Shown in pieces: positions 2,335-21,875 of a stretch of 64,000 bases of DNA. Both the position numbers and the translations under genes were made by a program. This DNA is from Catajapyx aquilonaris (Eukaryota): NCBI GenBank assembly GCA_000934665.2, contig KZ538551.1:62001-126000 (forward strand). Direction: 5' to 3'. The first letter of the stretch is position 1, and each line of letters begins with the position of its first letter. Below the pieces are notes generated by a model. That model saw only the letters and a list, made by a program, of their open reading frames with translations. It ran no database searches and had not been told where the DNA came from.

Positions 2335-4896
2335 TTAAATTGGAGCGGGTGTGGGTACGTTTATGAGAGGCGAGTCCAGTACTTCAGTCGACGTCTGGCT
2401 TGCAGGTAGGGCTTGTATCTGCTCGTTTTGCTCCAGCAGTGATTTGTACAAGTCCTGTACAGACTCGCTGTGCTGTAACGCAACAATTAACAGGTCATTA
2501 CAAATTATATATTTTTTTGGAAACAATTCGGATATCTTATCGTCACTTGCAAGTACAGAAAAACACAATCATGAAATTATCCAAAAATTGAAAACATGAC
2601 CTTTGACTTTTATATCACTTTAATGGCATGTATTTATTTACTTACTTACGTACTTGTTTATTTTAAACTCTATGCTCACATGTAATATTTCAGACCATTA
2701 GAAATGGCATTGCAGACAAACCTGTGCGCCTGGCTGCAACGCTTTCATTAGAGTGTCCATCCTAGCTGGAGGCAGCTTCGCATGGACGTACCAAAGCAGC
2801 TTCAACAAGTGTGCAGTAACATTCTCCCTGGTCAAACCGGCAGAAAAAAACTCGTCGAACACTACGGTGCAAAAGTCCTCCGCCGCAAACTCTTCAGCGC
2901 ACGACGACACCAAGAGGGCGACCAGTGAGTGCAAGAACGGATCCTCGTATGCCCTTTCAGCCTCGCAACTGGCCAACACACCCAGAACCCGCATGAGTCC
3001 GACCCTGTCACGAGTCTTTGCCGTGTGCAGGGTGTAGTACATGGCCAGCGTACTGGCCACGCTGCTTTCCTGCACGTAGGCTTGGTACGCATCAGGTGGT
3101 GGGCCGGAGTGCTCGATAATTGTAAGAGCAGATTCCCGCTCATCAGGTGGCAACTTGCTGTTAGTGAGCCGTATCTGGTCATCAACCATCAACGAGACGA
3201 GAGCTGGAAGGAACTTGCTGACTATCTGGATGTTCAGCTTCGGCTCCTTGAATTCCTGTGAGTTGATCATTTCCCATGAGCCGAGTCCGAGAGACAGCAT
3301 TCGCAGGAGGAGGATCAGCACCGTATTTTCCTGCAAGATCAGACATTGCAAAGTGTTTGTCACAGAATGGAAGTTGAAATCCTTACCCTCGGTAGTCCCT
3401 CCAGGTTGATAAGATGCTGCAATATCTTCATGGCAGATGTTGCCAGGAAGTTGACGGCATATGGATCGCACAAGATCATCGAGAGGTCACCCAGCACTTG
3501 CTCCTGCCCTCGTTGGATGCTGTCCAGAAACCCTTGCAGCTCTCTGGACCGTTTAACGTCCACGTTCTTCTCCCGTACACATGCGTCCAGACACCAGGTG
3601 AACTTGTGGCATGGATCGACCGATATGATGTCTTGGACCTCCAGGTCATGAAGGGCCATCAGAAGCTCAGCTCGAAGTGTGCAATAGTGGATGTTACGTG
3701 TACGAAGGAACAATGTGCGGAGAAATTGCAGCACCATGTCATACAGCTTCACTTTCGAGCCGATCATATGGGCAAGCTTCTGGACCACCTCGCCTTGACG
3801 TCGCATCTGGAGATATAATCACATTAAGGTTTGTTAAAGTATTTTCACAGAGTATTGCTGACCTTAGGCGACGGGCTGAAGAACAGGTTGTTCAAATTCT
3901 CGTGGTTGAACAGTATAGCATCCTTATCCTTGACGTACTGGTTCAATAGAGGCGACACCTCGTCGCCGAACAGTGAGTGGTGGTCCTTCCAAATCTGGCG
4001 TTTAACCTCAGTGTCGCAGTCGTCGTACAGAGCCTTGTCGCTCACCTGCAACGTATCATTGCTGATTATGCCGTTTTTGTGCAATTTTAGCAACAATTTA
4101 CCAGCACTTTCAGGTACTTGTCTTCAATGTGGCTTATATTCTTGAGGATCCCCATCACCACCGGTCTCAACTGCTTCACCTTGATCACCGGGAAGCTCTT
4201 GACCAACAATTCCTTCAGCTTCTTGTCCTTATCTTTACTGTCGCTCTGTCCCAACTCTCCCACCTTCAGCACCAGCTTGTCCCTCAGCTCCTGCAATTAA
4301 AAAAAACAAATTAAACCCAATCATGAACTCAACATGTTACAACCGACTTTACCTCCATCACGGTTATGTGGAAGTCCAACCTCTGAATCGAATGAAGGTC
4401 AAGCAAGGGCAGCATCGGTCTCAGCGACGGCAACAGAATCCCATTTTCATGCTGAAATGTTGTGCAATATTAACCTGCGAACCACTACACACATCTCCAT
4501 CTCCATTACATAAAAGGCAAAGCTTGTTTGTCTGCCCATGGCAACAGTTTGTCCACGACAACGGTTTGCCTGTTTGTCTGCCCATGGCAACTACACTCAT
4601 CTCTACTTCTATCTCTATCATATAAAAGACAAAGCCTGTTTGTTTGTCCACGGCAACAGTTTGTCCATGACAACAGGATCACCATGGCAACGACGTGTAA
4701 AGAACAGGCTCTGCTGCTAGTTAATTATTCTTCAACTTTCAACAGGCCTTGAGTATGCGTAAAATATTTTCATATGCACCTGAAATTCCTCGATGGCTTT
4801 GAGCGGGTCGTTGCAGTTGGTCAGGGCGTCCCTGAGGTCATCCCTTCCTGGAATCCCAATCTCCTCCAGTCCAATGTCGCCCATAAGACCTGCCAT
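2335..4896 (-). CDS. NELFB: Negative elongation factor B (COBRA1), 7 coding exons: 4780-4896, 4353-4451, 4102-4290, 3863-4045, 3387-3806, 2722-3330, 2335-2472; 584 aa
   Basis: Recognisable segments ENGILLPSL, EVKRQIW, LFGDEVSPLL, LYDMVLQFLRTLFLRTRNIHYCTLRAELLM, VDPCHKFTWCLDAC, QEQVLGDLSMILCDP. All six introns are GT-AG and phase 0; the spliced frame is continuous (1755 nt). AATAAA on the minus strand near 2253-2258. Confidence 0.97.
4497..4720 (+). mobile_element. Non-autonomous Helitron-like repeat in a NELF-B intron
   Basis: ATAAAAG-AAAG-(GTTT)n head present twice, and a 3' end GAACAGGCTCTGCTGCTAG ending in CTAG. Related copies at 23169-23470, 34836-35050 and 38337-38438. Confidence 0.55.
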
Positions 4897-5055
4897 TTTT
4901 TTTTTCTTCCACAACTTCTGCAACATAAGATCAAAATGCAAAATGTCAATGGCACACACTCTGCCATTTTGCTGCATTAAAAAAACTGGTGTGCCACCAA
5001 ACTTACAGGTTCAGAACGTGCCCCTGATATCGTGCGACAAACCGTACCTGCTTAC

Positions 5056-5594
5056 ACCCAGCCAATTCGTCCAGAATTCGCCAAAACAGTGCAAAATATT
5101 CGCAAATTAATGGAAAAGATGACACCGAACCAGCGCCATCTTTGAATCCGAAGCTTCACGAACCGGCCGCTAGAGGCGTTATTCCTACAAAAATCATAAA
5201 ATATTTTAAACATATTTTGCCCCAATTTTAATAATTACTATTTAATTAGGATATGCATCAATGTTAATTAAGTACGCCCTTGTTTTAACTTGAAGCAACG
5301 TTGCCAATTTGCTGGCTCTGGAACAAAAATGGAACAATGGCAGCTTCACATGTTTTGAACTGTGGAAAAAAAAAAAAAGTGTGTTCGACTCACGGTTCTA
5401 CTGAAGGTTCTGCAGAACGCGGGTTAGAACCGGTTAGAACACCTAATGAAGAACAACCCTGGGTCAATTTAATGGAATGGTAGGTACCAGGTATGGCCAG
5501 ATGTGTAGGTATTGTCTTTCATGTCATGCGAATGGCCAATTCTAATTAGTAAGTCTAATAAGACCATGGCATTAATTACAGCGCATGAAGCAAG
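5056..5594. promoter_or_regulatory. Divergent promoter region between NELF-B (5' UTR exon, donor GTAAGC at 5055) and the TFIIB-like gene
   Basis: Head-to-head arrangement. YY1-type motif AAAGATGGCG on the minus strand at 5134-5143; CTCF-like CCGCTAGAGGCG at about 5167-5178. Confidence 0.55.
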
Positions 5595-8500
5595 ATGGAT
5601 GACGACACTATACACGACATATTGCTGCGGAAGAACCTGCCTGGGTGGGTCAAGCAGATCGTCGTGGAGAGCGGCTTGCTGAAGAATCGGCAGGAGTTGT
5701 ACGGCGTGGGCGGGGAGTACGTGGTGAGGTGGGTCAGGGTCGCTCAAGAATGGATGGCGCGGAGGAAGGCGGCAATGGAGGGTTGCCTGGATTTCAGGCA
5801 GTTGGCAGAGGCCGCTTTTCAGGCGGAGGAGCTGCCACGCTACCTGCCCATAATCGCGGCTACGGTGCAGGAAGTGTTGGAGGAATGTCCGCCACCCCCG
5901 CATGAGGTATGACGAGGGTGCCATATGTTAATAAATTAAAGAAAATTAATAGCTATTTATATTTGCAGGCACCGCAAGGGGATGATGACGTCATTTGCAT
6001 CGAGTCGTCTTGGATTCCCCGGGATGTTGAAATGGATGACGTGAGCAATTTCTTTGCGGCTAAACTGAACGTGTCTGAAAATCAACAGCCAGTGATTGAT
6101 GTCAATTCTCAAGGAGCAAATGGGTAAGTGCGGTGCAGCATTCAGGTGCACTGTACCCCCGATTATCCGAGCCGCACTGTTGTCGCCAGATAATCGTAAG
6201 ACATGGATAATTGGAAGATAGCTTAAAAATGAGCTCACCACTGGTTTTAAATGAATGACTGTACATACTGTATTCTGCTTTAAATAAGATTTAATAAAAG
6301 TTATTTAAATGTCCATAGATTTTTAGTTTGTATTCTGGAAAAAGTCTGTTACATTAATTTTCTTTGTTTGCAACAATTTTTGGGGGGCTTCACTTTGTTG
6401 TAGCCGTGCACAGATAATGCGTATCACGAATAACCCACACCCGGATAATCGGGAGTACAGTGTATTTCGTAACAGTTGCTCTGACCTTATGGATGGTAGT
6501 TGAAATATACAGGGTGGGCGTAAAGTCCCAGGACACCTGGCCTTTTTTTCCCTGCAAAACAAATCTGTGCATGGAAAATGTGTCGGAAATGCTGGTGTAA
6601 CATCTTCTGGACACTGACGGAACTGTTTGATGAGGGGAGACATCTGAGGACCCCCAACAACACCTATAAAAAGCATTTAGCAAGGGAAGTGTCTTTCACG
6701 CTTTCCGTCTTTCACATTTCCCATGCTGAATGCTTTTTTCTCCCACTCGTTCAAGTTACTTCTTCTCGGTGGGACCTTACCAAAAGGAGCCCTGACGATA
6801 TCCTGCATGATGTGCGTTATGTTCTTTCCCACATGAGGCCTCCCGTGGACCCACACAGTAGCCACAAGTCTCTCCTCCACAGTGAACCCGCTCGTATCTG
6901 CCATCTTGCACTGTTAACAGTGTTAACTTACTGTGGGTGTTGTTGGGGGTCCCCAGATGTCTCCCCTCATCAAACAGTTCCGTCAGTGTCCAGAATATGT
7001 CACACCAGCATCCCCGACACATTTTCCATGCGCAGATTTGTTTTGAAGGCAAAAAAAGCCAGGTGTCCTGGGACTTTTCGCCCACCCTGTACATAAAGCA
7101 AAGTATTGAAGAGTATTGGAGAAGATGGTATATGCCGATTTCATGTGGCCTGACCAGTCACCAGAGGGTTCATTGTATCGGTCAAAGAGATGGCCAGATC
7201 CATGTGTCTGGTTATTGCTGGCCACCCCTTAATGGGATCTAGGCCGTGATGAATTGTATGTACGTTGCAAATATAATTTTGGAATAATTGAATGGCCACA
7301 ACAACAATTTTCTTTTTAGGGTGCATGCAAGTCATTGGAGGTATGGTAAGTGAACCAGATTGTCCCACAAGCAATTTCGTCAAGTTTAAAAATATTTTTT
7401 GTTCCGTTTTGTAATTGGACTGAGGACATGGGAACATCAGTCTGCATTCAAAAATTATTGACTAGGATGCAGATTTAAATTGTGAGAAATGGCACAACTC
7501 AATTTGACCCGTTAATAATAATTGTTCCCATTTGCATGCTGTTCATGTATACCAGTCACAGGCTCGAAGACTAATTTGGTGCTTTCAGATCTGGAATGTG
7601 CCAGCATGTGACACCATCTGGCACCTATGATGACCCTATTATTCTATCATCCGATGATGAGCTGGAAGTAACTTCTCCACAGCCATACGAGTTGGAAGTA
7701 ACCTTTCTACAGCCAGACATTATTCCCTCAGGGAGCGTACCAACTGTAACACTTCCGCAGCCAGAGGTTGTTCTCTCAGTGAGCAGACCAACTGTAACCC
7801 TTCCGCAGCAGCCAGAAAGTGTTCCCTTGGTGAACATACTAACCGTAGCCCCTTTGCAGCGAGTAAGTCGTCCCTCAGCAACCAAGAAAAGGAAAAGGGT
7901 GACAGTACGTTCTTTGGCTTTTTACTTGATGGAATTTTCTTGCACGACTACTTGAGTTGTGAGACGTACGATAGACTGCTAGTTGACAATGATGGCACAA
8001 CTGCTGCAGAGAAATATGTAGTATGTAACAGAAGGCTGATCCCATTTCTAATTTTAGAAACCAACGGCGGCTCCTGAGATTGTTGAGACTCCTGATATAT
8101 ACTCGTACATACATAAATTTGGAGGCAGGATGAGGCTTTCAGGAGAAGTGGTTCGGAGAGCAATAGCCGTATGTCAGAAAACTAAAGGAATAGTACTTTT
8201 CCCAAGGAAAAAGGACTACAACGCTATGGCAGGTGCTTGCATCTACGTTGCATCTCGCTTGGAAAAACAGCAACGAACAATGATGGTAAGTACAGGCTAA
8301 GGTGCATATTTTACACTTTTGCCGGTCATCATGACATTATTTACTTCCTGGCATGTATGCTAATACGTGTATCACGCTTCCTTCGTTTGAGCATATCACA
8401 CGCATGATAGAAAAACCGCACGAATTTTTATTCTTACAGGAAATAGTTTCTGCATGTCAGCTACAGGGCAGGGGAAGGATACATCTCTACTTCATGAGGA

Positions 8501-9084
8501 TGAAGAAGCGTGGCATCGATGTTGGGGAAGCCATCAAATCTGTGGATTTAATCCCACACTTTTGCACAGAGCTACATTTCGAGGATAATGTCTCAGGAGC
8601 AGCCGTGTACATTGCTACCCGGGTTGACCAGTCTGGTGAAGTTGCTAAAGGAAGAGGGCCTGTAAGCGTGGCTGTTGCAGCCATATACACAGTTTTCAAG
8701 GTACATTATATGTTAAATATCCATGTGCAATGTCTAAAAATATTCATATGTAACAGCTTTTATTGCAAGGTGATGTCATGAACATGTTCATGAAGAACTG
8801 GCATGTTTACACATACTGAAGTGATTTTGTATTGCCCTGGTTAGTTGTGATCTTGCTACACTTACCACATTTTCTCTCCTCTCTTGCAGTCATTGAAGAG
8901 GTGTGATGATGCTCAGAAGATTGTCGCACATGCAGGCACAAAGGATTCTGTCATTAGGCCAATTTGGAAAGATGTAGTGGCCAAGGAAGAGTTGCTCTTC
9001 CCAAATGGCTATCTTCAGAAGCTTGCAGAGAGCCACGGAGCAGCAAAGAACCCCCACTCCCACTCAGCACAACTGGCAGGTTGA
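5595..9084 (+). CDS. Divergent TFIIB paralogue lacking the zinc ribbon; exons 5595-5906, 5969-6123, 7589-7904 (alternative donor after 7862), 8058-8285, 8440-8700, 8890-9084; ~488 aa
   Basis: All junctions are GT-AG and frame-compatible (1467 nt, no internal stop). Exons 4-6 align to the TFIIB core: YNAMAGACIYVASRLEKQQRTMM vs [37 protein letters not shown] vs [23 protein letters not shown] vs AGVADVTIR. The last two introns lie at the same positions and phase as in the neighbouring TFIIB. The link to exons 1-3 is inferred from splice phase only. Confidence 0.8.
6149..6462. mobile_element. pogo/Tigger-like MITE
   Basis: 21-bp TIRs with one mismatch: CACTGTACCCCCGATTATCCG (6149-6169) and CGGATAATCGGGAGTACAGTG (6442-6462), followed by TA. 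Confidence 0.7.
6510..7089. mobile_element. Tc1/mariner-type MITE with ~155-bp TIRs
   Basis: TA|CAGGGTGGGCG...CGCCCACCCTG|TA; arms 6510-6664 and 6936-7089 are near-complementary; TA target-site duplication. Confidence 0.9.
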
Positions 9085-9231
9085 TCCTAAGAATAAACAA
9101 TAATTATGGAGTATTCAGACACTACTAAAAGTAACGTTTTGTTGTGTGCAAAGGAGATTGGCCAAAAAAAAAAGGGTATTGATTACGACACTTATTTTCA
9201 ACTGAAGTTCTAAGTCAGAAGTGTAACATGT

Positions 9232-9382
9232 AAGCCGCTTTTACATGTGAGGGATGTTGCAACAATGACATATCGCTCAGCGAAAGTAACAATTGTGGTT
9301 ACAATAATATATTTTCACCCCAAACAATTTGTCTCATCGCTGCAACATCGCTGATCAAATCGCTCACATGTAAACGCGGCTT
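9232..9382. mobile_element. Small MITE (possibly PIF/Harbinger-like)
   Basis: 20-bp TIRs matching at 19/20: AAGCCGCTTTTACATGTGAG and CTCACATGTAAACGCGGCTT. Confidence 0.6.
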
Positions 9383-9665
9383 TGTACCTATATTTTTTTA
9401 AAGACTGGAAGCCTATTTGTAGCAGTGATGGGCACCATTCAATTCAAAGCTGAATCAGGCCACATTTGTCCAGTGAATTAAAAATAATTGGATGTGAACA
9501 GCAATGAGAATTGGAAAAATCTGAAGTGTGTAATGAATGGGACTGAATAAATTCAAAGGGAGACGTGGAGGGCTGAATAGTTGAAATACGTACGGAGCAG
9601 TGAATGATGCCCATCTCTACTTTTTTATCAATCTCATACAAAGAAAATGTGTAAAATGTACACCA

Positions 9666-9763
9666 GTGTACTATGGGCGCCAAAAGAATTGACCGGAGTT
9701 GATGGGCATATAGCGCCATTTACCCATCAACTCCGGTCAATTCTTTTGGCGCCCATAGTACAC
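9666..9763. repeat. Perfect 41-bp inverted repeat with a 16-nt loop (mini-MITE or hairpin)
   Basis: Arms 9666-9706 and 9723-9763 are exact reverse complements; internal TA|CTATGGGCGCCAAAAG termini. Confidence 0.9.
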
Positions 9764-9799
9764 AGAGCACATGGAGTCGTAATGGTAATAGGCCTACAT

Positions 9800-10300
9800 G
9801 CATTTTTCCTCCTTGGGTCATGTTAAGTCACTAATGATATTAAGTAAAGATGATCATGCAAAGTACATAACAAAAAAGGGGAATACAGAAGTATTCATGA
9901 TATAGTTCCCAAATTGCTGTCAATTAATTAAATTGTTTTCCATATAATTGTTTTGCCCTTAGATTTTAGATGCATTCATGTTTAATAATACGTGCTTTTT
10001 TCTACCAGGAACATGTTAATAAGTCACTAATGACATAAGACTGATCATGCAGAGTACAAAGTAATACGAAAGAGTTTCCAATGTTTCACCAATTGTCAAT
10101 TAATCGAAATGTAATTGTTCTGTCCTTGTTTTTAGATGCGTTCAGGTTTAATGGTGCTTTTTCCTCCCAGTGACATGTTAAGTCACTAACAACGTTAAGA
10201 AAGACTAGTCACGCAAAGTACAAACCAAAAAAGTGCAATGCAGAAGTATTCATAATATTTCCACAATTGCTGTCAATTAAATGTTTCTCATATAATTGCT
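9800..10300. repeat. Three degenerate tandem copies of a ~160-190-bp unit
   Basis: CATGTTAA(..)GTCACTAA...TCATGCAAAGTACA...TGTCAATTAA recurs at about 9819, 10012 and 10174. Confidence 0.75.
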
Positions 10301-10687
10301 GTAATTTGCATTATTTTAGCCTGCACTATTTATATGGCGTCGAGCATTTTATTTTCATAAGATGTATGCTCACTCATTAGATACAATCATGTACCTGAAT
10401 TGAATAAAATAATTTTTCAGCAATTAAGTGAAATTTTTGAATGACGTAGTTTGTCTAACCCACGCCAGATGGCAGCACTTTCCTGACAGGTGACACATCC
10501 TGGCACCAAAGCCCACCATTTTCTCCGAACTCGGGCCCGAGAAAAGATCAACACATCTGCAGCGACACCGCCATGGGCGCTGCAATTGTGGGCAATGCAT
10601 TGCATACGGATCCGCCCCGGGACACAGCGCCTCTTCTGGCCGAATAGTAAACGCATCTGAATTTACGCAATCCGTGGCCTACTTGTA

Positions 10688-10732
10688 TGACGTCACGATT
10701 GGAAAAATCGGGGTTTGATAAAATGGCCGCCG
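10688..10732 (+). promoter_or_regulatory. TFIIB proximal promoter motifs
   Basis: CRE palindrome TGACGTCA (10688-10695), inverted CCAAT box ATTGG (10698-10702), and YY1-type AAAATGGCCGCC overlapping the start codon. Confidence 0.55.
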
Positions 10733-13331
10733 TCGGCAGGTAATTTCTGAATCGAACGCTTCGAAAAATCCGGATTTGGACCCGGTTCTGGCCTCGTTTG
10801 GGTCTGGAAATGGTCGGGGGTCGGGCACGGGCGGGTCTAGCCACCAGGGGCGGCCAGTGGGCTGCCCCGGGGGCCACGGGCGGGCTGGGAAATGGGGAGG
10901 GGGAGTTCCAAAAGTTGTGAAATATTAATTTTGTTCTATTATTTAATGCTGCATATGAATTTATGTTGCAGCCGTGACACCCCGAAGGTATGCTGCTATG
11001 CCCACCCGGATGCACCGCTGATTGAGGACTACAGGGCCGGAGACCAGATTTGTTCCGAGTGCGGACTTGTCGTTGGGGACAGGTGCGTACCGCAGTTACA
11101 GCCTTTTACGACATGTAACGCAACTGTACTTGTAGGGTAATAGATGTGGGGTCTGAATGGAGGACTTTCAACAATGAGAAGAACAACGCGGATCCATCTC
11201 GTGTTGGCGGGCCTGAAAACCCTCTTCTCAATGGATCTGATTTGTCCACCATGATTGGGCCCGGGAGAGGAAACGCTTCGTTCGATGACTTTGGGGTGTC
11301 CAAGTACCAGAACAGGAGATCGGTAAGTTCGTTTACAGCTTGAGCGTACGTATGTATTGCGCTGTTTCGTTGATTCCAGATGAACAGCTCGGATCGTGCG
11401 CTGGTTAATGCATTCCGAGAGATCAGCAGCATGTCTGACCGGATTAACTTGCCCAAGACAATAATCGACAGGGCCAGCAACTTGTTTAAGATGGTGCATG
11501 ACGGGCGGAACCTGAAGGGCCGCAGTAACGATGCCATCGCCACCGCATGCCTCTACATTGCCTGCAGACAGGAAGGGGTTCCACGCACTTTTAAGGTAAC
11601 GCCCTGAGTAAGAATCGCGATCGGTACTTGACGGCCTGATTATTTGCAGGAGATCTGTGCTGTGAGTAAGATCAGCAAGAAGGAGATTGGCCGCTGCTTC
11701 AAGCTGATCCTGAAGGCGCTTGACACAAGCGTGGACCTTATCACCACTGGGGACTTCATGTCTCGTTTCTGCTCCAATCTTGGCCTGCCTCCAATGGTCC
11801 AGAGGGCAGCCACGCACATTGCCAAAAAGGCAGTCGACCTCGACATTGTACCAGGGAGATCGCCCATATCAGTGGCCGCTGCCGCAATATACATGGCATC
11901 GCAGGTATGGACCACACAGTTACGCTGGGGGGGGGAATAGGATGCAATAATGAGTCAACCCACGTAAGAACAGTTTCGAACAGAGGATTCATGACAAATA
12001 AACAAAGTCATTGTCATTTCTGATGAATCCTTTATTCCAAACTTACTAGTGTGTTAGGTGGCAAAAGTTTCTGGCCTATGCTCCAGGGTTGATGGAAATT
12101 AAACCACGGTAGTGTCATAAATGGACAAGTTTGTGCTCGCAAATTGAGTCACACACTTGAATAAACAACTTCAGTCAGACATGCTGCACCATTTCACATA
12201 GTATTGAAAGTCAAGTACGGAAAGGAAGGAATTACATCCAGTGCTATCAAACAGGAACTGTGGCTTCGAAAAGAATGACCATCCACCATGAGGTGATACC
12301 TGGCCCTCAGTGGCTGTTACTTGTTTTCAAATCTCAAAAAATACCTTCCAGATATATAGAAAAAATGAAAATTAATATAGTGCAGAAAACTAAACGATGA
12401 CAAGACTTCGTCACGTGTACTCCTATTGTTGCATGAGAACAAAGCGATGGCAGCAGATCGTAATTTCGTTTTCCGAACTGTAGTTGCAGGAGGCATTTCC
12501 AGACAAAACTTGGAACGATTTTTCCAACGGTATTGTTTGTTTAATTATTCGGAGATGTAAGGAATGTGTTGTAGTATGAGATGACAATACTGAAAAATGA
12601 TACTGTTGTTTTATATCCGTCACACCTTGAACACAGTCAGCCGGAAACTTTTGGTTCCTACCTTGTATTTCAAATGCAATGTTAATGTGTCATAATAGTT
12701 GCAATTTAATTATATTCACATTGTAATCATACTGAACCCTCTATATCAAAAACCAGTTTTAAATATTATTCAAAAGAAATTATTAATGATAATCGTCATA
12801 AACTAGAATTAACGCAATCTTTCTAAACAAAATGGGCAGCACTGGTGTAGTGGTTAGCGCCACATACTTCCACCTCTGAGGTCCCAAGTTAGATCTCTGG
12901 ATCGGACAGAGGATACTTCTGTGGATAGAGTTCCGATGGGTTCTCTCCATGTTCGCATGGGTTTTCTCGGGACTCCCGTTTCCTTTCACTATCAAAATCC
13001 ATCACAGAGCAGGCAGTGATTAAAGTCGGTTCACGAAAAGATGATCCCCTAAGAGGCTCAAGGAGGCCTGTCACGGGGTATCCATTATTATGACTTTGTA
13101 AACATATGCCATTTTTGTCAGTTGACAATCGCATAACACTGTCCGATTTTAATACCAATGTAATTTCAGGCGTCGGAGGACAAGCGGACACAGAAGGAAA
13201 TCGGTGACATCGCAGGCGTGGCTGATGTCACGATCCGCCAGTCGTACAAGCTCATGTATCCAAAGGCTGCAGATCTGTTCCCGGAAGACTTCAAGTTCGC
13301 AACGCCACTGGAACAGTTGCCTCAAATGTAG
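10723..13331 (+). CDS. GTF2B: Transcription initiation factor IIB; exons 10723-10739, 10972-11082, 11136-11322, 11380-11595, 11650-11904, 13170-13331; 315 aa
   Basis: Zinc ribbon (CYAHPD...[22 protein letters not shown]), B-reader/linker (DPSRVG), both cyclin repeats and HTH ([17 protein letters not shown]). All introns are GT-AG; 948-nt continuous frame. Confidence 0.99.
12834..13000 (+). mobile_element. tRNA-derived SINE with a V-SINE-like core, in TFIIB intron 5
   Basis: A box TGGTGTAGTGG (12843-12853) and degenerate B box GTTAGATC, then TGTGGA...GTTCTCTCCATGTTCGCATGGGTTTTCTCGGGACTCCCGTTTCCT, resembling the V-SINE central domain. Confidence 0.7.
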
Positions 13332-13724
13332 TGTGTTTAAAAAGAGTGTGCACAAACACTTTTTTTTTCCATTTCTATGCATAATATTAATGGTGTAATA
13401 ATGGGAATTGCACTGTGTCAATTTTTACAGTATTTCTAAGGGTTTGGTCAAATTTATTAAGATCTGAAGAGAGTCTTTTGCTCTGTGGGCTTTTGGATGG
13501 ATTACGCAGTTTTTTATATATAAAAAATTGTTGGTTGACTGGAAGACAATTTTAGGGTTTAGTTACATGTGTTGACTAGTTGTACTTTCATTTCGGGCAC
13601 TGTATCACTTGTGGGGGGGGGCGCAACATAATAATAACTTGTTGTTAAAGTACATGTCCATTTGTTTCACACTCATTTTACCTGCATTCATATCCGTTTT
13701 TGATCCTTCAAAAATGTAAAAAGT

Positions 13725-13960
13725 CCGAATTTGGCGATCCGAATATTTATAGTCTTCCGAACGTGTGCAATTCACCGAATTTGGCGTCGACTTTGAGCAG
13801 CGAGATCGAATGAGATTGACTTTTCGTGAGTTTTTAAATTAATTTTTCTGACTACCCAATGTATTTCTAGATTGTAATTTGCTGTACTTGTTTGCAGTGG
13901 AGGGGCGGATTTGCTGGCAGACAAGGTGAAGAAACGTCAGGTCTTGCTGCCTGTTGGCGG
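13725..13960 (+). pseudogene. Degenerate copy A of URM1 exons 1-2
   Basis: TTGGCGTCGACTTTG (start ATG changed to TTG at 13781), TGACTTTTC|GTGAGT donor, same intron 1 end, and an exon 2 copy from 13898 reading GGADLLADKVKKRQVLLP. Confidence 0.9.
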
Positions 13961-14003
13961 CAGTTTGGTTGACTTGACTTGACCGAGTTTAACTGATGCT
14001 TTT

Positions 14004-14151
14004 GTATCAACAGTCCAAAAAGAATTGTCCCGTCGCGTCGAGCGGGCAGCCACGCGTCAGGATGAAAGGAATCTTGAAACTGGTTCCTTTCATCCTGACG
14101 CGTGGCTGCCCGCTCGACGCGATGGGACAATTCTTTTAGAACTGTTGATAC
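14004..14151. repeat. Near-perfect 68-bp inverted repeat with a 12-nt loop (MITE-like hairpin) near the duplication junction
   Basis: Arms 14004-14071 and 14084-14151 are complementary with only a few mismatches; TA-flanked TCAACAGT...ACTGTTGA ends. Confidence 0.9.
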
Positions 14152-14164
14152 CATTTACCCTCTT

Positions 14165-14402
14165 TCCAATCAGATGGACAGAGCAGAACATGGCCTATAG
14201 AACGTGCTCCTATAGAGAAGGAATTATGCAGTCTGTACATGATGGCTTGATTATTCGCAGGAGATCTGCGCCGTGAGTAGCCACCATGAGGGTGGCGCTG
14301 CGGACAGGCTGATCCTCAAGGTTCTCAACATAAGTTTCATGACTTATTTTTTGCTCCAATCTTGGCTCGCCTCCGATGGTCCAGCCAGGCACATTGCCAA
14401 AA
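14165..14402 (+). pseudogene. Decayed TFIIB fragment (exon 4 acceptor, intron 4 end, deleted exon 5)
   Basis: TGATTATTCGCAG|GAGATCTGCGCCGTGAGT...GCTGATCCTCAAGG...TGCTCCAATCTTGGC...CACATTGCCAAAA is collinear with 11637-11828 but carries frameshifting deletions. Confidence 0.85.
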
Positions 14403-14417
14403 ATGAAAAAAAGAAAA

Positions 14418-14665
14418 GCAAATTCAAATTTGGTGCCATAATTTCAGATTATTTGGCGACCTGTTCAATAGTTGTCATTTGGCTGAATTTCATGCAATTC
14501 GCTCCTCAAATTTGGAGACTTTTCGTGAGTGTTTCTTTCTTCAGTTTTTTCTAGTTACCAAGAGTGTATTTCTCGATTGTAATTAGCTGTACTTGTTTGC
14601 AGAGGAGGGGCCGAATTTCTGGTCGACAAGGTGAAGAAACATGTCAGGCCTCGCTGCCTGCAGAA
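14418..14665 (+). pseudogene. Degenerate copy B of the URM1 promoter and exons 1-2
   Basis: AATTCAAATTTGGTGCC...TAGTTGTCA matches 17664-17726. The ATG is lost; the GTGAGT donor and TTTGCAG acceptor are kept; the exon 2 copy from 14603 reads GGAEFLVDKVKKH. Confidence 0.9.
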
Positions 14666-14729
14666 GTCCGATTGGTTGATGTTGCCGAGAGTTGCTTTGT
14701 GACCATTTCCCCCTCTTTTTCCCATTCAG

Positions 14730-17336
14730 ATGAGCAGCTCGAATCCTCGCCTGGCTAATGCTTTACAAGCAATGACCAGCGTGGCCGATCATATCAACCT
14801 GCCCAAGGCAACAGTCGACAGGGCCGGACACTTGTTTAGGACCGTGCGATTCAAGCATCGCACCAAAGACGCAATCGCATTCGCATGCCTTTACCTTGCC
14901 TGCAGACAGGACCACGTCCCCTGCAGCCTTCATGTAAGGCTAATTATGCGTAAAAGTATACAACGGGGTCACATTTAATAATAAATAGCATTAAATATAG
15001 GTATTTATAACTAATAAATTATTGTTTGTCATGTGTAAATCACTCATGGAATTAGCTCCTGGAGAAGAGCTAGTGCAATTGATGGCCTGATTATCATTGC
15101 AGGAGATCTGCGCTGTGAGTAGGATCGACAGGAAGGAGATTGGCCGCTTCTACAAGCTGATCATGAAGGCTCTCAACATCAGCGTGGACCAGGTGAACAC
15201 TGGGGACTTCATCGCTCGATTCTGCTCCAATCTGGGCCTGCCTTTGATGGTCCAAAGGGCCGCCACACACATTGCCGAAAAGGCAGTTGAACTCGGCATT
15301 GATTTCCACTCGAGATGGCCCACAACAGTGGCCGCCGCTGCAATATACATGGCATCGCAGGTATGGATCACATGGTTGTGCTGGGAGGGTACAATTTAAT
15401 ACCAGTGTTAATTGCAGGCTGATGTATCTGTAAGCTTAATTGGGGATGTTGTACCAAGTAATGATGGTTGTGGGGATATTGTTAAGGAGAAAGGGGGCAA
15501 CACCAAAGTCTAACTGGTTGGGCTACGTACCGGCAAGGACGAACCGCAGGGGTTTACGAAGCCTGCGTGAATTACAAATGCATTAACTTACCAAAATCAA
15601 GATAGTTTCAGTGGTTGAAGGGTGCAGGAGGACTGATGACATGAAGATCGAATGGAATTTATTCATACGAACATGATAGAGTTATCGTATCTAAGACAAA
15701 TTCAATAATATTTGATGGTTGGCAACAACAGTCATAATCGAGTCACTCAATTGTTGACGCCTAAGGAGGATACCGTGGAAACTGAATGAAATATAATAAC
15801 AAGTTGAATGAATGAAATGGTTATTTAATAATAATGTAATGAAAATAAGGTAAAGCATATATTTATTTAAGCAGTTAGCGTACGTAATTCCGCATAAGGT
15901 GTAGAGATGATATTTACACAAAATAATATTCTAAATCATGTGTGACTATTGTCACACGTGGATTCCAGTTGCACGCATTGCTGCTCATAATGAATTATTC
16001 ACTTATAATTTTATTTCGGGGTTCTATTACGTCCTTGGGTTTTTTGTGTAGGGGATCGGGCACTGCAGCACGTCGGGCCGGATACGTGTTCAAAATATGA
16101 AGGCTGTACTTGCAACGGGTTTTGAGATATGCTTGACAGAAAAACTCGTCTCAACAAGAACAAGGAAAATTTTCATTGTTGTTTTTGCACGAGGATCTTA
16201 CTTATAGGGACTATCATCAAGTGGGCCTTTAAAATTATTAAATATTCCAATGGAGTCTCACACTCCAACGTGCGTGAAAATAACATGACATACATGATCA
16301 ATAGCTGTAAATAAGACCAGGATTCCGAAATATGGTTTTCCTGATGACCGCCATTTTTATGAATTAATTACGCGCTAATGAGAGCCTAAAAACTTGGGGT
16401 CTGGGGCGTTTTACGTTCAGGAAGGGATGTAGTATCAGCACCGTAAATGGCATCTTCTCCGCCAAAAGTGAAATATTCCGTCACTATTTCGGACGTTCCG
16501 ACCCCACTACAAGTAAGTTTTCTAGAAATAAGGACTTATCTTCTGCCTGTAGGTTGTCTGTCTATTCTCACGTTATGGTTCCTTCACTTATGTATGGTAG
16601 TGAAGCGTGGGTCTGGTCAGATATGCATAAGAGTAGGGTGTTGGCTACAGAGATGCGTTATCTCCGGGCTGTTTGTGGGGTTACCAAGTTGGATAGGATT
16701 AGGAATGAGGAGATTTTGGAGAGGTGAGGTTAAAGATAAGGTGTGTAGGTCTACTCTGAGGTGGTTTGGCCATGTGGAGAGGATGAAGGAGGAGGAGATT
16801 GTGAAGAAGGTTAATTTGGGTGGAGTAGTTGGTAAGAGGGGCAAGGGTAGGCCTAGGAAGACATGGTTGGACCAGGTGGGCCAGTGTCTTAAGGGTGTTG
16901 CTAGTGTTAAGCCGAGACGTTCATGTGTCAATAGGACCATGGACGTGGCTGAGGCTAGGGTTGTTTGTTTGGATAGGTGTAAATGGCGTAGGTTAACTAA
17001 TGGGTAAATATGTCTGAGGATAAGGTGATGTCTGAGGTGGGGGGTGGGACAGGTTGTTTTTAGGTTTATTCTCATAAGTTTTATTAGTTCATATGTTGGG
17101 TTAGCTTGCATCTCCCTTCATCGCTGACTACCCCTCATAGGGAAATGTCGTGATGTTGTTGTTGTTAATTGCAGGCGTCTGAAGACAAGCGGACACGGAA
17201 GGAAATCTGTTACGTCGTTGGCTTGTATGACGTCTCTATCTGCCCTTTGTACAAGCTCATGTATCAGAAGGCTGTAGATCTGTTCCCGGATGACTTCAAG
17301 TTTGCGACGCCTTTGGAACAGTTGCCTAAAGCATAG
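14730..17336 (+). CDS. Core-only TFIIB paralogue; exons 14730-14933, 15103-15360, 17175-17336; 207 aa (could be a young pseudogene)
   Basis: Copies of TFIIB exons 4-6 with intact splice sites, only in-frame length changes (-12, +3, 0 nt) and a stop at the homologous position. The ATG is the first codon of the exon 4 copy. Confidence 0.65.
15420..17162 (+). mobile_element. Truncated RTE-clade LINE insertion (probably with deleted or nested interior) with a 14-bp TSD
   Basis: RTE C-terminal motifs YGSEAW...[22 protein letters not shown], then after a frameshift [10 protein letters not shown]...[12 protein letters not shown] (about 16590-17007). (TGT)n tail; TGTTAATTGCAGGC repeated at 15406-15419 and 17163-17176. 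Confidence 0.85.
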
Positions 17337-17777
17337 TATTAAAGAGAGAGTGCACATTTATGTATCACAATTGCACAACAACAACAACAACAACTTTTTT
17401 TTCGTTTTTTCGTTTTAAATATGGCGTAACAATAAGTGGCCCTACGCCAAGAACTAATAACTACCGGTATTAGCTCTTGCCCACGCTTGTTACACCATAT
17501 TTGCTGGCAATCCCACCCCAAATATTATTTGGGGTGAGATTGCCAGTTCTTACAGTATTACCGAGTTTGGTCAATTATGCAGATAAATAATGACAATGTC
17601 AAAGTACACGTTCAGTATGGTTTCATTTCACCCCCATTCATACCCTAATTAAATTATCTAGCGAATTCAAATTTGGTGCCGAAATTTCAGAATAGCTTTA
17701 GTTGGTGACATGTTCAGTAGTTGTCAGTTGCCTGAATATGTGTACCATGTCATTCATCACGTGCTCTCAAATCCAAT

Positions 17778-19878
17778 ATGGCGTCGACTTTGGGCCTCGA
17801 AGTTGACTTTTCGTGAGTGTTTTCCTTCAATTTTTTCTCATTACCAAGTACATTTATGGACTGTAATTAGCTGTACTTGTTTGCAGCGGAGGGGCCGAAC
17901 TGCTGTTCGATAAAGTGAAGAAACACCAGGTCTCGCTGCCCCTAGACGACCAAAAACAATGTGAGTCATGCCCCTGACAAATGGTCATGAACGTTTCCTT
18001 TTGCTGCTGAAAATATTAATTAAAATATCGGATTATATTTAATTGCGTTAAGTTAACTATTGCATTACATTTCATTGAATTAATTGCGTGAAATTAGATT
18101 ACTTACTATGTTAAATTTAATTTCATTGAATTAATTATATGAAATTACACTACTTACAATGTTAAATTAATTCCAATACGGTTATTCCAATATTAAATTA
18201 AACCATATCAAATTACATGCCACATTACATTATTTACAATGCTACATTAAATTCAATTACATAATTAAAATATTACATGAAATTCCATTGCATTTATTAC
18301 AATATTGAAATAAATGTTAAAATAAACAACATTAAATTACATGTTACATGACATTACAAGACAAATTAAATTATTGCATAAAATTAATTACATTTATTAA
18401 AATAATAAATTAAGCACAGTTGTAAAGGAAATAATGCGGTCCTGCCTTGTATGTCATGATAACTCGAGATTAAGTTTGCCATACTTTTCAGCTCTAAAAT
18501 CTGTGTTAGCTAGCTATTAGCGCAAAAATGGGATCCTCTGACTGCCACAACTTTCCAGCGAGCTGTTAGTAATGCCATCACTCCGCCTAATCACGTTTGA
18601 TGTCACCGGAACCATCCTACGCTTTCGGAAGAATCCGGCTGACCAGTATGCGGAGACGGCTGCCGCATTTGGCCTCGTTGCCGATCGCAGTCTAATGTTA
18701 TCCAGCTTCAAGTCAAGCTTCAAGAGAATTAATGAGCAGCACCCTTGCTATGGGGCGTTGACCAGCTTGGCTTGGGAGGACTGGTGGCGCAAAGTGGTCC
18801 TGGGCACGTTTCATGGTGCAGGGGTCGAAGGTCAGGCGTTGGGCGAGGTGGCCCAACGTTTGATCAAGTTTTATCACACCTCAGATGCTTGGGAGGTGTG
18901 CCCCGGGGCTCGTGAGATACTAGAAAAGTCACGGAAACATCGGCTTGAGGTTGGGGCGTTGTCCAACTTTGACCCGAGTTTGGACCCGCTTTTGGGCACT
19001 ATGGGAATCAGACAGTTGTTTGATTTTGTAGTCACGTCGCATGAAACTAAGTGCGCCAAACCAGGCTCAGCCATTTTTATAGCCGCATTAAACAAGTCGA
19101 AGTTTAATCTCAAGCCATCAGAGGCTGTTCATGTTGGCGACAACTACGAACTGGACTTTTTAGGTGCCAAAAAGGCAGGGTGGCAAGCACTGCTGGTTAG
19201 TCAGAACGTACCTGATGGAATTTCTAGTGAGCACCAGAAGTTTGTCTTTCCCTCACTGCAAGAGCTGTCCGCACACTTGTTCAGGTTGGGGATCCCATTT
19301 TTGCGATACACAGGTCGAAAGCTAGAATTTTACAGTTGTATTTGCTTGTTTCAGGGACAATTCAGCACTTACTGGTGTGGATTAAGGACAATCTGTTGCG
19401 GCAGAGGCCGGAATTGTTCATCAAAGGTGATTCGGTGTAAGTGTTAGCTGCGGAATCTTCTAAAAACATGCGATTAATACTAGGAAAACTTGTATCTTTT
19501 TTTCCCTGAAAATCTGGTCAACTCTTGGGTATTGTTGTTGCCAAGGTTTTTTTATTGAATCAGATTCCAATGTACACAAATGGGTTGGAAATATATTAAT
19601 TTACATACAGGGTTTTTATCGCTGTGTGTTGTATTCACACATTATGAAGTTCAACTTGTGCACAATGTTGTTGTTAATAAAATGTCTGCTATTGTTGCGT
19701 AGGAGGCCTGGAATACTTGTGCTGGTGAATGATTGCGACTGGGAATTGATGGTGAGTAGTTACCTGTGCATTGAAGGGATTTGCAATTAACAGATTTAAA
19801 TCGTTTCAGGGCAATTTGGATTACGAGCTCAAAGAAGGTGACAAGATATCGTTTATATCGACTCTACACGGAGGATGA
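17778..19878 (+). CDS. URM1: Ubiquitin-related modifier 1; exons 17778-17812, 17887-17960, 19355-19436, 19703-19751, 19810-19878; 102 aa
   Basis: Spliced product [102 protein letters not shown], with the URM1 signatures GGAELLF, RPGILVL.ND.DWEL and ISTLHGG. Missed by the ORF track because the exons are short. Confidence 0.98.
18521..19305 (+). promoter_or_regulatory. 16-bp perfect inverted repeat pair bracketing the HDHD3 exon (candidate long-range pre-mRNA stem)
   Basis: CGCAAAAATGGGATCC (18521-18536) and GGATCCCATTTTTGCG (19290-19305). Confidence 0.65.
18572..19385 (+). CDS. HDHD3: HAD-like hydrolase (HDHD3/Reg-2 type) nested in URM1 intron 2; likely exon 18559-19284 spliced to 19355 (stop 19383-19385); the unspliced ORF runs to 19447
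   Basis: HAD motifs LITFDVTGT (I), LSNFD (II), KPGSAIF (III), [18 protein letters not shown] (IV). CAG|GTTGGG donor at 19284/19285, where recognisable similarity ends. Confidence 0.9.
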
Positions 19879-21875
19879 GTCAGCATTTATTTTGTATCAG
19901 GGAATAATAATATTGTAATTCACATAATCTGCGGATACAATAATAATATAAAAAAGTGTGAGAACCCACAGCTTGCGATTTTTTTTCATCCTCGGTGACA
20001 ATTCCAACCTGTTCTTAAATGGTCCAGTGAACTCGTGTTTCTTTTCAACTCTTCATGAGGTTAGAACCATGTCCCCTTTGGCAGGGAAAACTTCCCTTCA
20101 AGTTTTGTGTTAAACTTCTGCAAACTTTATGAGCCTACTTGACAGATTTCCCAGGGGGTATTCCAGAGAAGAAGGAAGGAGCAGTCAGTGGAAAACAGGG
20201 ATCTCTCGCTGTACCGAGGAAAAAGAAGAAGAAGCACTAGTTAGCATTTCTAGTACAGTTATACTTTTCTTCACACCGAGGATAACAACAATGTGTGGAG
20301 GAAAAATATATATTTTCTGTTCCCTCGGGGTCCATCGCGTAGTGATAAATGAGGATCCATGATGGATTGACGTGCCTCGAGACAGAGAAGTCGAAGCAAA
20401 AGGGGCTGGTGATTAGAGGCTGGCTGGCCTCAGCAAATATGCTCCGATGCAGGGGGCTGGCTGCTGCCATGACGACGCCGACGACGCCATCCGTCTTGTC
20501 TCTTTCTCTCTGAAGTCTCCACAATAGCCTCCTACGATTTCCTTCAACCTGTGTGATCCAGATAAACAATTTTAAGTCGCTTCGGAACAAATTATTATTT
20601 TGATGTATTAATAAAAAATTTTTGAACATAACTCTGTGCATAAGGGGATGTAGGAGGGGCGGCCTTTTCTTTATCGACGTCGATATACCGAGGGGTTGAC
20701 TCCCTTGACATTTATGATCTTCGACGCCCGATATTTTTACTCTCGAAAGGTTTGAGAGAACTTCAGGCGCCTTTTTTGTATTCATTTAGCAGCCATATTT
20801 TCCACACCTGATTTAAGTGCTTCTGATCCTATTTTTTTTTGTACTGAGATTGTATATGACAAAAATATCATCTACATGGCGACTAAAGTCTGGATTGCAT
20901 TGTTAGCTGCCAGAACAAGAGCATTAAAAATTGATGCTCCATAATAGGAGACTCACCAACTGTGATGGTTTTGCTGTGTAGCTAATGCTCTAGATGGCCT
21001 ACAGTTTTCAGGATAATTCTATTATTGGACGACCTACTTTTGATTAGTACATTGAACAAACAGATCAGTAACCCTGGGGGTGCAGTGTCGTCAAGGAAAT
21101 GGAGAGAGCCGTTCTTTATTATTATTATTATTAGCGGCGGATAAGATTTGGTGCTCGTAGATTAATCACGTGCTGCTGTATACGTGCAGGGCTTGTCAAA
21201 AACTGGCAGCAAAATCCTTTTTTCCTCTCCAAAAAATAAGAAGAAGAGGAGAATGCAAAGAAGAGCAAAATGGGATCCCTGTATAAGAAAGGGAAAGGCG
21301 CGTCCTTTTCAAATCTCCCTTGTCTCCCGCGATGTGCGGAGAAAAGGAAGGGGACAACAAAAGGAGGAAAAAGCCGAGCAGACGCCTTCGTGTCAGACCT
21401 TATCACCAAGAGAAGCAACCCAAAGGCCCGACCCTCCCTTCCACATCCTTCATCACACCTGATGACGCTGTAACTTAAAGACGTGAGACTCGTCTTTCCG
21501 GAACCGGCTCACTAATGCAAAGAGTGGGGCCGGTTCTGGAACGGGTCCGGTTTCTCGACTGCAGTGTTATCTGTGCCTATAACCTGGAGGTGGAGACGCT
21601 GCATTGTTTGCAGGCTTTTGTCCCCCCTAGGGAGGCGAAGAAATCCGCAAATCCGTCCATGTCCCCAGAGGCACACTGCTACTGCAATGCAGGCCTATTG
21701 TTATCTCCTGCCCTTAATGAATGCAAGTGACTCCTGACGAGAATGGTTGAGTCTGCCTTCGACTTTCCTTGAGCCTCCAAATTGGCGGAAACTCTACAGT
21801 TTCTGATTCGCTTATCTTTAAACCCAAGGAATCGAGGAGAGAGAAACCCCCCCTCCCAGTTTATATCAGTCCCAT

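Follow-up and report, generated by a model that had tools for sequence, protein, structure and literature searches.

The window analysed here, a 64,000-nucleotide stretch of a Catajapyx aquilonaris contig, carries three TFIIB-family reading frames (A, B, and C), all on the + strand and all with GT-AG introns (Table 1), which confirms the frames and positions proposed by a first-pass annotation. Gene B, flanked by copies A and C, has the CxxH..CxxC zinc ribbon (PF08271, E 2.2e-6 for the exon alone) and both PF00382 repeats; it is 89.8% identical to Cryptotermes TFIIB, and insect TFIIB orthologues are 85-90% identical to it. RNA joints came from X1, a single run of unrecorded library type with 12 joints listed and contig depth unfit for ranking genes. 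These joints covered 4 of the 5 introns of gene B, and the first intron was represented by a loose end matching exon 1. No single exon contains a whole cyclin repeat. The proposed three-member cluster holds as to its three frames, but a decayed fourth TFIIB piece (D) and two partial copies of URM1 (U1 and U2) are also there, and the order along the locus is B-U1-D-U2-C-URM1. Spacing is preserved, with approximately 450 nt from the B stop to the U1 start and approximately 440 nt from the C stop to the URM1 ATG. We take the 3' gene and its copies to be URM1, a putative name given without a family match. Mis-assembly of the region is unlikely, because the copies differ by 13-30% at the DNA level and carry private insertions, and because the listed pieces of the RNA contigs agree with gene B at every letter.

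Table 1. Features of the TFIIB-URM1 locus, in positions of the window.
Feature	Position	Strand	Description or evidence
Copy A	5595-9084	+	493 aa, 7 predicted exons
A exon 1	5595-5906	+	New N-terminal part belonging to no known family, mostly helix by prediction; intron 5907-5968 spliced in X1
A exons 2-4	5969-6123, 7320-7340, 7589-7898	+	Low-complexity, acidic/Pro-rich; predicted from GT-AG and frame
MITE-like inverted-repeat element	6505-7094		In A intron 2; not present in the A copy on C3782
A core exons	8058-8285, 8440-8700, 8890-9084	+	TFIIB cyclin repeats, 29% identity to B; introns 8286-8439 and 8701-8889 spliced in X1
Gene B	10723-13331	+	Canonical TFIIB, 315 aa, 6 exons: 10723-10739, 10972-11082, 11136-11322, 11380-11595, 11650-11904, 13170-13331
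U1	13778-13972	+	Degenerate copy of URM1 exons 1-2, with an insertion and without the start codon
Hairpin	14004-14151		68-nt arms, inserted at the U1-D junction
D	about 14172-14403	+	Truncated, frameshifted fourth TFIIB piece covering the beginning of exon 4 and some of exon 5; sister of C
U2	14417-14680	+	Copy of URM1 upstream region and exons 1-2, directly 5' of C
Copy C	14730-17336	+	TFIIB core only, 207 aa, 3 exons matching B exons 4-6: 14730-14933, 15103-15360, 17175-17336
URM1	17778-19878	+	Intact, 3' parent of the array; RNA joints 17960>19355 and 19436>19703
HAD hydrolase frame	18542-19447		Nested in URM1; PF00702 match

The last three exons of copy A correspond to B exons 4-6, with the same phase-0 intron positions and 29.4% identity over 194 columns (E 1e-16), and two A exons scored above the PF00382 cut-off of 23.6 bits (33.5 and 31.2). 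Three of the 6 predicted introns were spliced in X1; copy A is transcribed and spliced. Among the joints listed from X1, there were none for the introns of exons 2-4 and none tying the N-terminal exons to the core exons. Exon 1 had no match in Pfam, the protein database, or the Atlas, and its single-sequence fold model (pLDDT 50.6) had no match at E<=0.001. Exons 2-4 contain a pair of SIM-like motifs, one around residue 112 and one around residue 180 (shuffled sequence gave 0.39; P 0.054), and a basic stretch resembling an NLS closes exon 4; both assignments are presumptive. A broken copy of the 5' part of A is present on contig C3782.

Both extra copies had been described as lacking the zinc ribbon and reader, and every search agreed. 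A tblastn search of the whole window with B residues 1-105 matched only gene B (next best E 1.2), and PF08271 was found in B and not in A or C. The B-reader and B-linker were absent from A and C by tblastn and profile tests. Comparison with a profile of 69 animal TFIIB N-termini, together with local alignment, revealed no trace of ribbon or reader in the N-terminus of A; the score was 28, equal to the shuffle mean, and 451 of 1000 shuffles scored the same or higher. A vestigial ribbon/reader in A, first suggested by motif likeness seen by eye and by matching intron phases (2-2-0), failed this test and was rejected. The description of both copies as core-only holds for C, which consists of exons 4-6 alone, but not for A, which has 266 unrelated N-terminal residues. 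C scored 35.1 and 54.0 bits for PF00382; the last exons of A and C, searched alone, had no PF00382 match. Both cyclin repeats of canonical animal TFIIB (two PF00382 repeats plus PF08271) are retained in A and C, as are the intron positions of exons 4-6; the two copies differ from it in having no zinc ribbon, B-reader, or B-linker and in their 29% and 64% identity to B. Both share the intron positions of B and end shortly after repeat 2, which argues against descent from the Pol III factors BRF1 or BRF2, with their C-terminal extension. A separate gene on contig C334 is, by its motifs, presumably BRF1-like. The human TFIIB core is represented by structures 1VOL and 1C9B.

Copy C is 63.8% identical to B over 210 columns. 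It starts at TFIIB's own internal Met, its indels are all in frame (-12 and +3 nt), its junction lies at the 57-nt intron 3, and its last intron contains a retroelement-like insertion. The upstream part of U2 aligned to that of URM1 with a score of 84, compared to a shuffle maximum of 28; U2 may supply the promoter and 5' UTR of C. Splicing of U2 exon 1 directly to position 14730 would bring an ATG at 14492, otherwise out of frame, into the C frame; such a splice was not observed. D and C have F195Y, D203N, and T204I in common, and stops, frameshifts, or lost splice sites occur in D, in both URM1 pieces (U1 and U2), and in the A copy on C3782. As shown by comparison of these copies, C was born by tandem duplication of a unit comprising TFIIB exons 4-6 and the URM1 upstream region with exons 1-2, which left an intact TFIIB 5' and an intact URM1 3', separated by a URM1/TFIIB-core junction; the decayed sister D came from one more round of duplication. 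The ribbon of C was thus lost to the duplication breakpoint, which is shared with URM1. No joint of C was among the 12 listed from X1, and there was no depth in the bin 14519-15019, which is not proof of silence.

The two ribbon-less copies have separate origins, as first proposed. Four-fold sites were identical at 42 of 60 for B-C, compared to 7 of 27 for A-B and 6 of 23 for A-C, both near chance (0.20-0.23). A single truncation event giving rise to both was considered and rejected: A and C shared only 6 residues against B, compared to 12 shared by A and B and 82 shared by B and C, with four-fold sites saturated. The description of one old and one young paralogue also stands, A being the older and C the younger. 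In a 23-row tree of A, B, and C with 20 named proteins selected from among 120, C joined B (94/53) and A fell on an unplaceable long branch; A is therefore not datable from the tree. Searches for orthologues of A and C came back negative: A exon 1 had 0 matches among 170 candidates, an A core exon matched one canonical-type nematode protein with a repeated core, and C exon 5 retrieved canonical TFIIBs at 73% identity or below among the best 120 of 644. These negatives are weak evidence, because single exons were used as queries.

C has accumulated approximately 114 substitutions with no stop or frameshift and retains 5 of 5 splice dinucleotides, together with the start and the position of the stop. 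Neutral indel rates predict 3-15 frameshifts, and C has 0 (P 0.03 to 2e-7); the P value for a stop-free frame was 0.025-0.18 across models and 0.03-0.09 at the best-fitting divergence. Substitutions in C were more conservative than neutral (BLOSUM P 0.002-0.027), and hydrophobic-to-charged or -Pro changes numbered 1 compared to 5.8 expected (P 0.014). The signal of hydrophobic conservation in C hinges on Ala, with 5 compared to 16 expected when Ala is included and 7 compared to 9.2 expected for VILMFW only (P 0.29). Since the D/C split, D has undergone 25 changes and 4 indels and C 11 changes (P 0.014). Pairwise dN/dS for C was 0.51-0.67 (bootstrap 0.43-0.87), with 0.5 expected if only C were neutral. 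Against a conservation profile of 118 of the 120 proteins (P0001 and P0002, which have repeated cores, were excluded), changes in C fell on 38 of 114 animal-invariant positions and 34 of 92 variable positions (Fisher P 0.35), including G153, G247, S249, R286, and Q287. The near-neutral dN/dS and random changes at invariant sites fit a C that is a pseudogene, either recent or in slow decay, and that arose passively from the TFIIB-URM1 duplication, which would leave only A as a gene; so do the lack of a listed RNA joint, the insertion in the last intron, and the death of D and both URM1 pieces. However, the intact frame and splice sites, and the slower change of C than D, argue against it. We had at first thought a plain pseudogene rather probable; the frameshift and D comparisons lowered that estimate, and we now consider it unlikely. 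Retention of the C frame points to past selection, which would still be compatible with recent functional loss.

Copy A had no stops, frameshifts, or lost splice sites. Compared with the broken C3782 copy, 7 of 14 exonic indels were not multiples of 3, yet A is open (0.5^7 = 0.008). In the same comparison the N-terminus had a dN/dS of 0.69-1.06, with dN 0.10-0.115 against an intron divergence of 0.09. Both frames look selected. Had either copy been unexpressed or neutral, the first-pass annotation would have failed; A is transcribed and both frames are retained, but amino-acid rates are near neutral in both, and C had no joint in X1.

Contact residues were scored from a largely presumptive list. 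C kept 12 of 22, with no enrichment of conservation, and A kept 10 of 22 (P 0.075, marginal), with alignment uncertain around 150-155 and 186-196; conserved-site enrichment in A gave P 0.087. Both copies keep Y165, R169, R248, and P250 and have lost S249. A, at 29% overall identity, also keeps G247 and R286, and it carries G153P (alignment uncertain), V283S, and Q287P, with K188, F195, and K196 changed. C carries G153H, G247S, S249W, A281Y, R286C, and Q287P. Changes in C affected 10 of 14 codons at 275-288 in the helix-turn-helix; clustering there was not significant in a window scan (P 0.27; block variance P 0.036) and was set aside. Residues 281-290 presumably read BREu. Neither A nor C retains the full set of BREd-loop (G153/R154) and BREu helix-turn-helix residues. 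G153 lies in the BREd-reading loop, in which G153/R154 have a role (PMC4529316), and R169 is marked on a TBP-TFIIB figure (PMC6004067). A literature search for contact-residue mutants gave no match.

On sequence evidence, A and C are real, lineage-specific, ribbon-less TFIIB paralogues, and by analogy they are plausibly germline modulators. The reading that we prefer, with belief and doubt about evenly weighted, is that independent, lineage-specific duplications of TFIIB core exons were kept as fast-evolving genes, with A the best candidate for a TBP-family competitor or adaptor and C a weaker binder. A and C would both be modulators of low abundance, probably with a germline bias, comparable to the TFIIB paralogues in the testis of stalk-eyed flies (PMC4824122). 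A would be the better candidate for binding a TBP-family protein through its six retained contact residues, and its N-terminus may serve nuclear import and tethering instead of Pol II recruitment. In C the cyclin fold probably persists, along with part of the TBP face of repeat 1, but the BRE-reading residues are lost; C would more likely bind TBP or a partner weakly, under relaxed selection, than act as a decoy that occupies promoters.

That A and C are instead selected dominant-negative decoys, sitting on TBP-promoter complexes and blocking Pol II recruitment, we find doubtful. Two independent ribbon-less, core-intact survivors start at the same exon boundary and retain four contact residues in common, and published work reports that the TFIIB core can bind TBP when the N-terminus is missing and that it occupies the U2 promoter more than full-length TFIIB does (PMC6004067). 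However, intron 3 is a natural phase-0 domain boundary followed by a Met, and survivors would therefore start there whatever their function. The interface of a decoy should also be strongly constrained, which the invariant sites and contact residues of C, and its replacements at G153 and the helix-turn-helix, do not reflect. The proposal of recurrent selection for decoys is thus not upheld, given the breakpoint loss of the C ribbon, the dN/dS of C, and the equal rates of change at invariant and variable sites. Similarly improbable is a scheme in which the Pol II-docking arm of A was replaced by a SUMO/chromatin-tethering N-terminus, holding TBP or TRF2 promoters polymerase-free or re-routing them, with C a second TBP competitor on a captured URM1 promoter. 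Very unlikely is an activating A, a Moonshiner-like basal factor tethered to chromatin that recruits Pol II by another route, so that its missing ribbon need not mean repression: the marginal SIM-like and NLS-like motifs, the precedent of Moonshiner as a fast-evolving TFIIA homologue initiating heterochromatin-dependent transcription (PMC12992792), and contact of the TFIIB core itself with Pol II (PMC4671959) favor it, but the specialised ciliate TFIIB Emit3 needs its ribbon for Pol II loading (PMC12082453), SIM enrichment is marginal, and the genome offers no additional TBP-family partner (one TBP and one TRF2-like locus among 5 matches).

The zinc ribbon is the part of TFIIB that docks on Pol II, and core-only TFIIB, a construct made in the laboratory, binds TBP despite lacking the N-terminus. 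TFIIB had been called normally single-copy in animals, which is overstated: table 1 of PMC4824122 gives 5 copies in each of three stalk-eyed fly species and 2 in Anopheles gambiae. Stalk-eyed flies likewise have several lineage-specific, rapidly evolving duplicates, a likeness in duplication and rate, ribbon aside; their whole basal machinery is expanded, whereas the TBP family is not expanded in the arthropod studied here. C resembles Sdic of Drosophila melanogaster (PMC3395120), a tandem-array chimera lying between two intact parents with parts of both inside, its coding region from one parent and its upstream region from the other. Sdic is testis-expressed and functional; C is known from sequence, and its URM1-derived promoter is putative. 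The N-terminal zinc domain is also missing from truncated TFIIB-like factors of plants, among them Arabidopsis AtBRF5 (PMC7865254), but AtBRF5, as described there, has a linker and one repeat only, unlike A and C, which have both repeats, no linker, and descent from Pol II TFIIB. Tetrahymena Emit3 (PMC12082453) and Drosophila Moonshiner (PMC12992792) are divergent germline basal-factor paralogues that may serve as functional analogues for A, although Emit3 keeps its ribbon and Moonshiner is a TFIIA homologue rather than a TFIIB core. Searches of the open-access literature found no naturally occurring animal gene that has both repeats but lacks the ribbon, and no description of a natural dominant-negative TFIIB class in animals. 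If the regulator reading of A and C is true, they would constitute such a class, evolved twice independently in one animal, and if either competes with TFIIB, it would offer a direct route to tissue-level control of pre-initiation complex assembly. Even without competition, the locus is a clean example of how a chimeric gene is born, and D, U1, U2, and the A copy on C3782 serve as internal neutral controls, which makes selection on each copy testable.

Exon models built from the region 4000-20000 contained three TFIIB-family frames, all on the + strand: a canonical gene (B) and two copies without the ribbon (A and C). Residues are given in human TFIIB numbering, in which residue 179 corresponds to residue 178 of B. 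B was 85-90% identical to the top insect members of its 15 best homologues, Cryptotermes being the best (89.8%), which places the host among the arthropods. Ribbon and reader sequence, searched for across the window, was present in B and nowhere else, and no vestigial ribbon or reader was detected in A. A PF00382 profile search of the genome returned 8 matches among 11 candidates, 2 falling in each of these three frames and 2 in a BRF1-like gene on another contig (C334). The first-pass annotation had described A and C as core-only. Both do have the core exons and lack the ribbon and reader; however, A carries 266 extra N-terminal amino acids, encoded by its four predicted 5' exons, for which a search gave no family match.

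Features of the window, in window positions
Feature	Position	Strand	Description
RING finger (C3HC4) membrane-protein-like gene	251-about 1350	-	PF13920; downstream of NELF-B
NELF-B/COBRA1 gene	about 2335-5050	-	PF06209 match
A	5595-9084	+	493 aa; three core exons equivalent to C's, 29.4% identity to B, behind four predicted exons
Tandem duplications	7659-7793		In A exon 4; 30 and 48 nt
Palindrome	9666-9763		Between A and B; 49-nt arms
Degenerate triple repeat	9795-10300		Between A and B
B	10723-13331	+	Canonical TFIIB, 315 aa; ribbon exon, reader exon, both PF00382 repeats
U1	13778-13972		URM1 exons 1-2; decayed
D	about 14172-14403		Frameshifted; covers the start of TFIIB exon 4 and some of exon 5
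U2	14417-14680		Exons 1-2 of URM1 with the region upstream of them
C	14730-17336	+	207 aa; equals B exons 4-6; first residue is TFIIB's own internal Met; 63.8% identity to B
Retroelement-like fragment	16368-17007		Inside last intron of C
Intact URM1	17778-19878		Adjoins C; spliced in RNA run
HAD hydrolase frame	18542-19447		Nested within URM1 intron

Four-fold sites were identical at 42/60 between B and C, 7/27 between A and B, and 6/23 between A and C (chance, 0.20-0.28). A is older than the B/C split and is not a product of C's truncation; the two copies arose independently. A lies on a long branch of the tree, and a search for its orthologue found none.

Self-comparison of the window showed that the repeats extend into the gene adjoining C, which we take to be URM1, as well as TFIIB. 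The order is B, U1, D, U2, C and intact URM1. U1 and U2 have in common a junction sequence running into the TFIIB exon-4 acceptor, and D and C have three derived amino-acid changes in common. The layout is that of a tandem array whose three units combine TFIIB exons 4-6 with the URM1 5' end, with an intact parent on each side, and C lacks the ribbon because the duplication breakpoint excluded it. The array is like Sdic, as described in one account, in having tandem units between two intact parents (PMC3395120). The upstream region of U2 aligned to that of URM1 with a score of 84 (shuffle maximum, 28), which would make U2 a ready candidate promoter for C; younger age alone might explain the likeness.

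C and B were compared over 206 codons (dN 0.21-0.225, dS 0.34-0.42, ratio 0.51-0.67). At the 72 residues that differ, B matched the animal consensus at 59 and C at 4, so nearly all protein change lies on the C branch, where dN/dS is then about 1. Across 118 animal TFIIBs, changes in C struck conserved and other sites equally often (38/114 sites at least 95% conserved vs 34/92). C has zero stops and its indels are all in-frame, against 3-15 frameshifts expected at neutral rates, whether chosen conservatively or measured on a broken copy of A. Its substitutions were more conservative than in neutral simulation, and its sister D outpaced it (25 changes and 4 indels vs 11 changes). Hydrophobic-to-polar changes numbered 5 vs 14-17 expected, a deficit that was weaker once Ala was dropped (7 vs 9.2). 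A fair reading is that C was selected to stay open and is probably folded, with its surface released. C has G153H, G247S, S249W, A281Y, R286C and Q287P, and retains R154, Y165, R169, K189, G192, R193, K196, R248 and P250. BREd is described as read by TFIIB G153/R154 (PMC4529316).

A is a real gene because its 493-codon frame is unbroken, its synonymous sites are saturated and its RNA is spliced. A broken dispersed copy (G000:C3782:40205-42305; L013-L015) holds the upstream region, exons 1-4 and the start of exon 5, without the TFIIB core or the MITE, and is about 79% identical to A, gaps included. Between the two, 7/14 exonic indels were frameshifting and the A frame is open (P about 0.008, alignment-dependent). 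Pairwise dN/dS was 0.69-1.06; the N-terminal sequence is thus weakly constrained. The exon 4 duplications, not found in this copy, are an in-frame expansion of a low-complexity linker. The A core retains 10/22 listed contact residues vs a 29% background (P 0.075), including G247, R248, P250 and R286, and two SIM-like motifs were marginally enriched (P 0.054). A and NELF-B/COBRA1 are head-to-head with starts within about 700 nt, and may have a bidirectional promoter in common.

Contigs of the single run matched to the window (X1) skip GT-AG introns; X1 is therefore RNA. The 12 listed joints comprised 4 B introns, 3 A introns, 2 URM1 introns and 3 non-GT-AG joints that are repeat-derived, and the listed pieces had no differences from B. 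Expression of the extra copies was borne out for A, which is transcribed and spliced as modelled at 3/6 introns (5907-5968, 8286-8439, 8701-8889); none of the 12 joints linked its N-terminal exons to its core exons. For C, neither of its 2 introns was among these joints, although one run of contigs cannot establish silence. One URM1 joint (17960>19355) bypasses the HAD frame, and a separate 461-nt contig lies within that frame (18718-19178). A contig joining 15493>16509 shows many differences and is probably another copy of the element in the last intron of C; this fragment had no Pfam match and presumably resembles a LINE reverse-transcriptase tail.

The TFIIB core alone is reported to bind TBP, with occupancy above that of the full-length protein at a promoter named U2 in that source (PMC6004067). 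A would most likely bind a TBP-family protein, a role that we propose tentatively, and compete with or re-route TFIIB at some promoters, its new N-terminus providing localisation. C would most likely still fold and bind TBP with partial affinity, but no longer read the BRE. We lean slightly toward C being a functional gene still; a role as promoter decoy seems unlikely for it and is partly contradicted. The TBP family is not expanded in this genome (5 matches, 2 loci).

TFIIB duplicates in insects and truncated forms in plants are known already. Diopsids are described as having 5 fast-evolving TFIIB copies in each of three species, with nearly all basal-machinery duplicates highly expressed in testes, and An. 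gambiae as having 2 copies (PMC4824122). By analogy only, expression of A and C could be germline-biased. Plant TFIIB-like forms include one reported without the zinc domain (PMC7865254), and the ciliate specialised factor Emit3 is reported to require the ribbon (PMC12082453). TFIIB proteins of Cyprideis torosa (P0001) and Panagrolaimus sp. (P0002) have core exons tandemly repeated with identical sequence; these are probably assembly or annotation artefacts, but could be very young duplications of the same kind as here. Searches of the open-access literature gave no TFIIB paralogue from an animal that has both repeats but lacks the ribbon. The ribbon-less TFIIB core copies described here are real, arose twice independently and are open to testing, with a putative decoy role.
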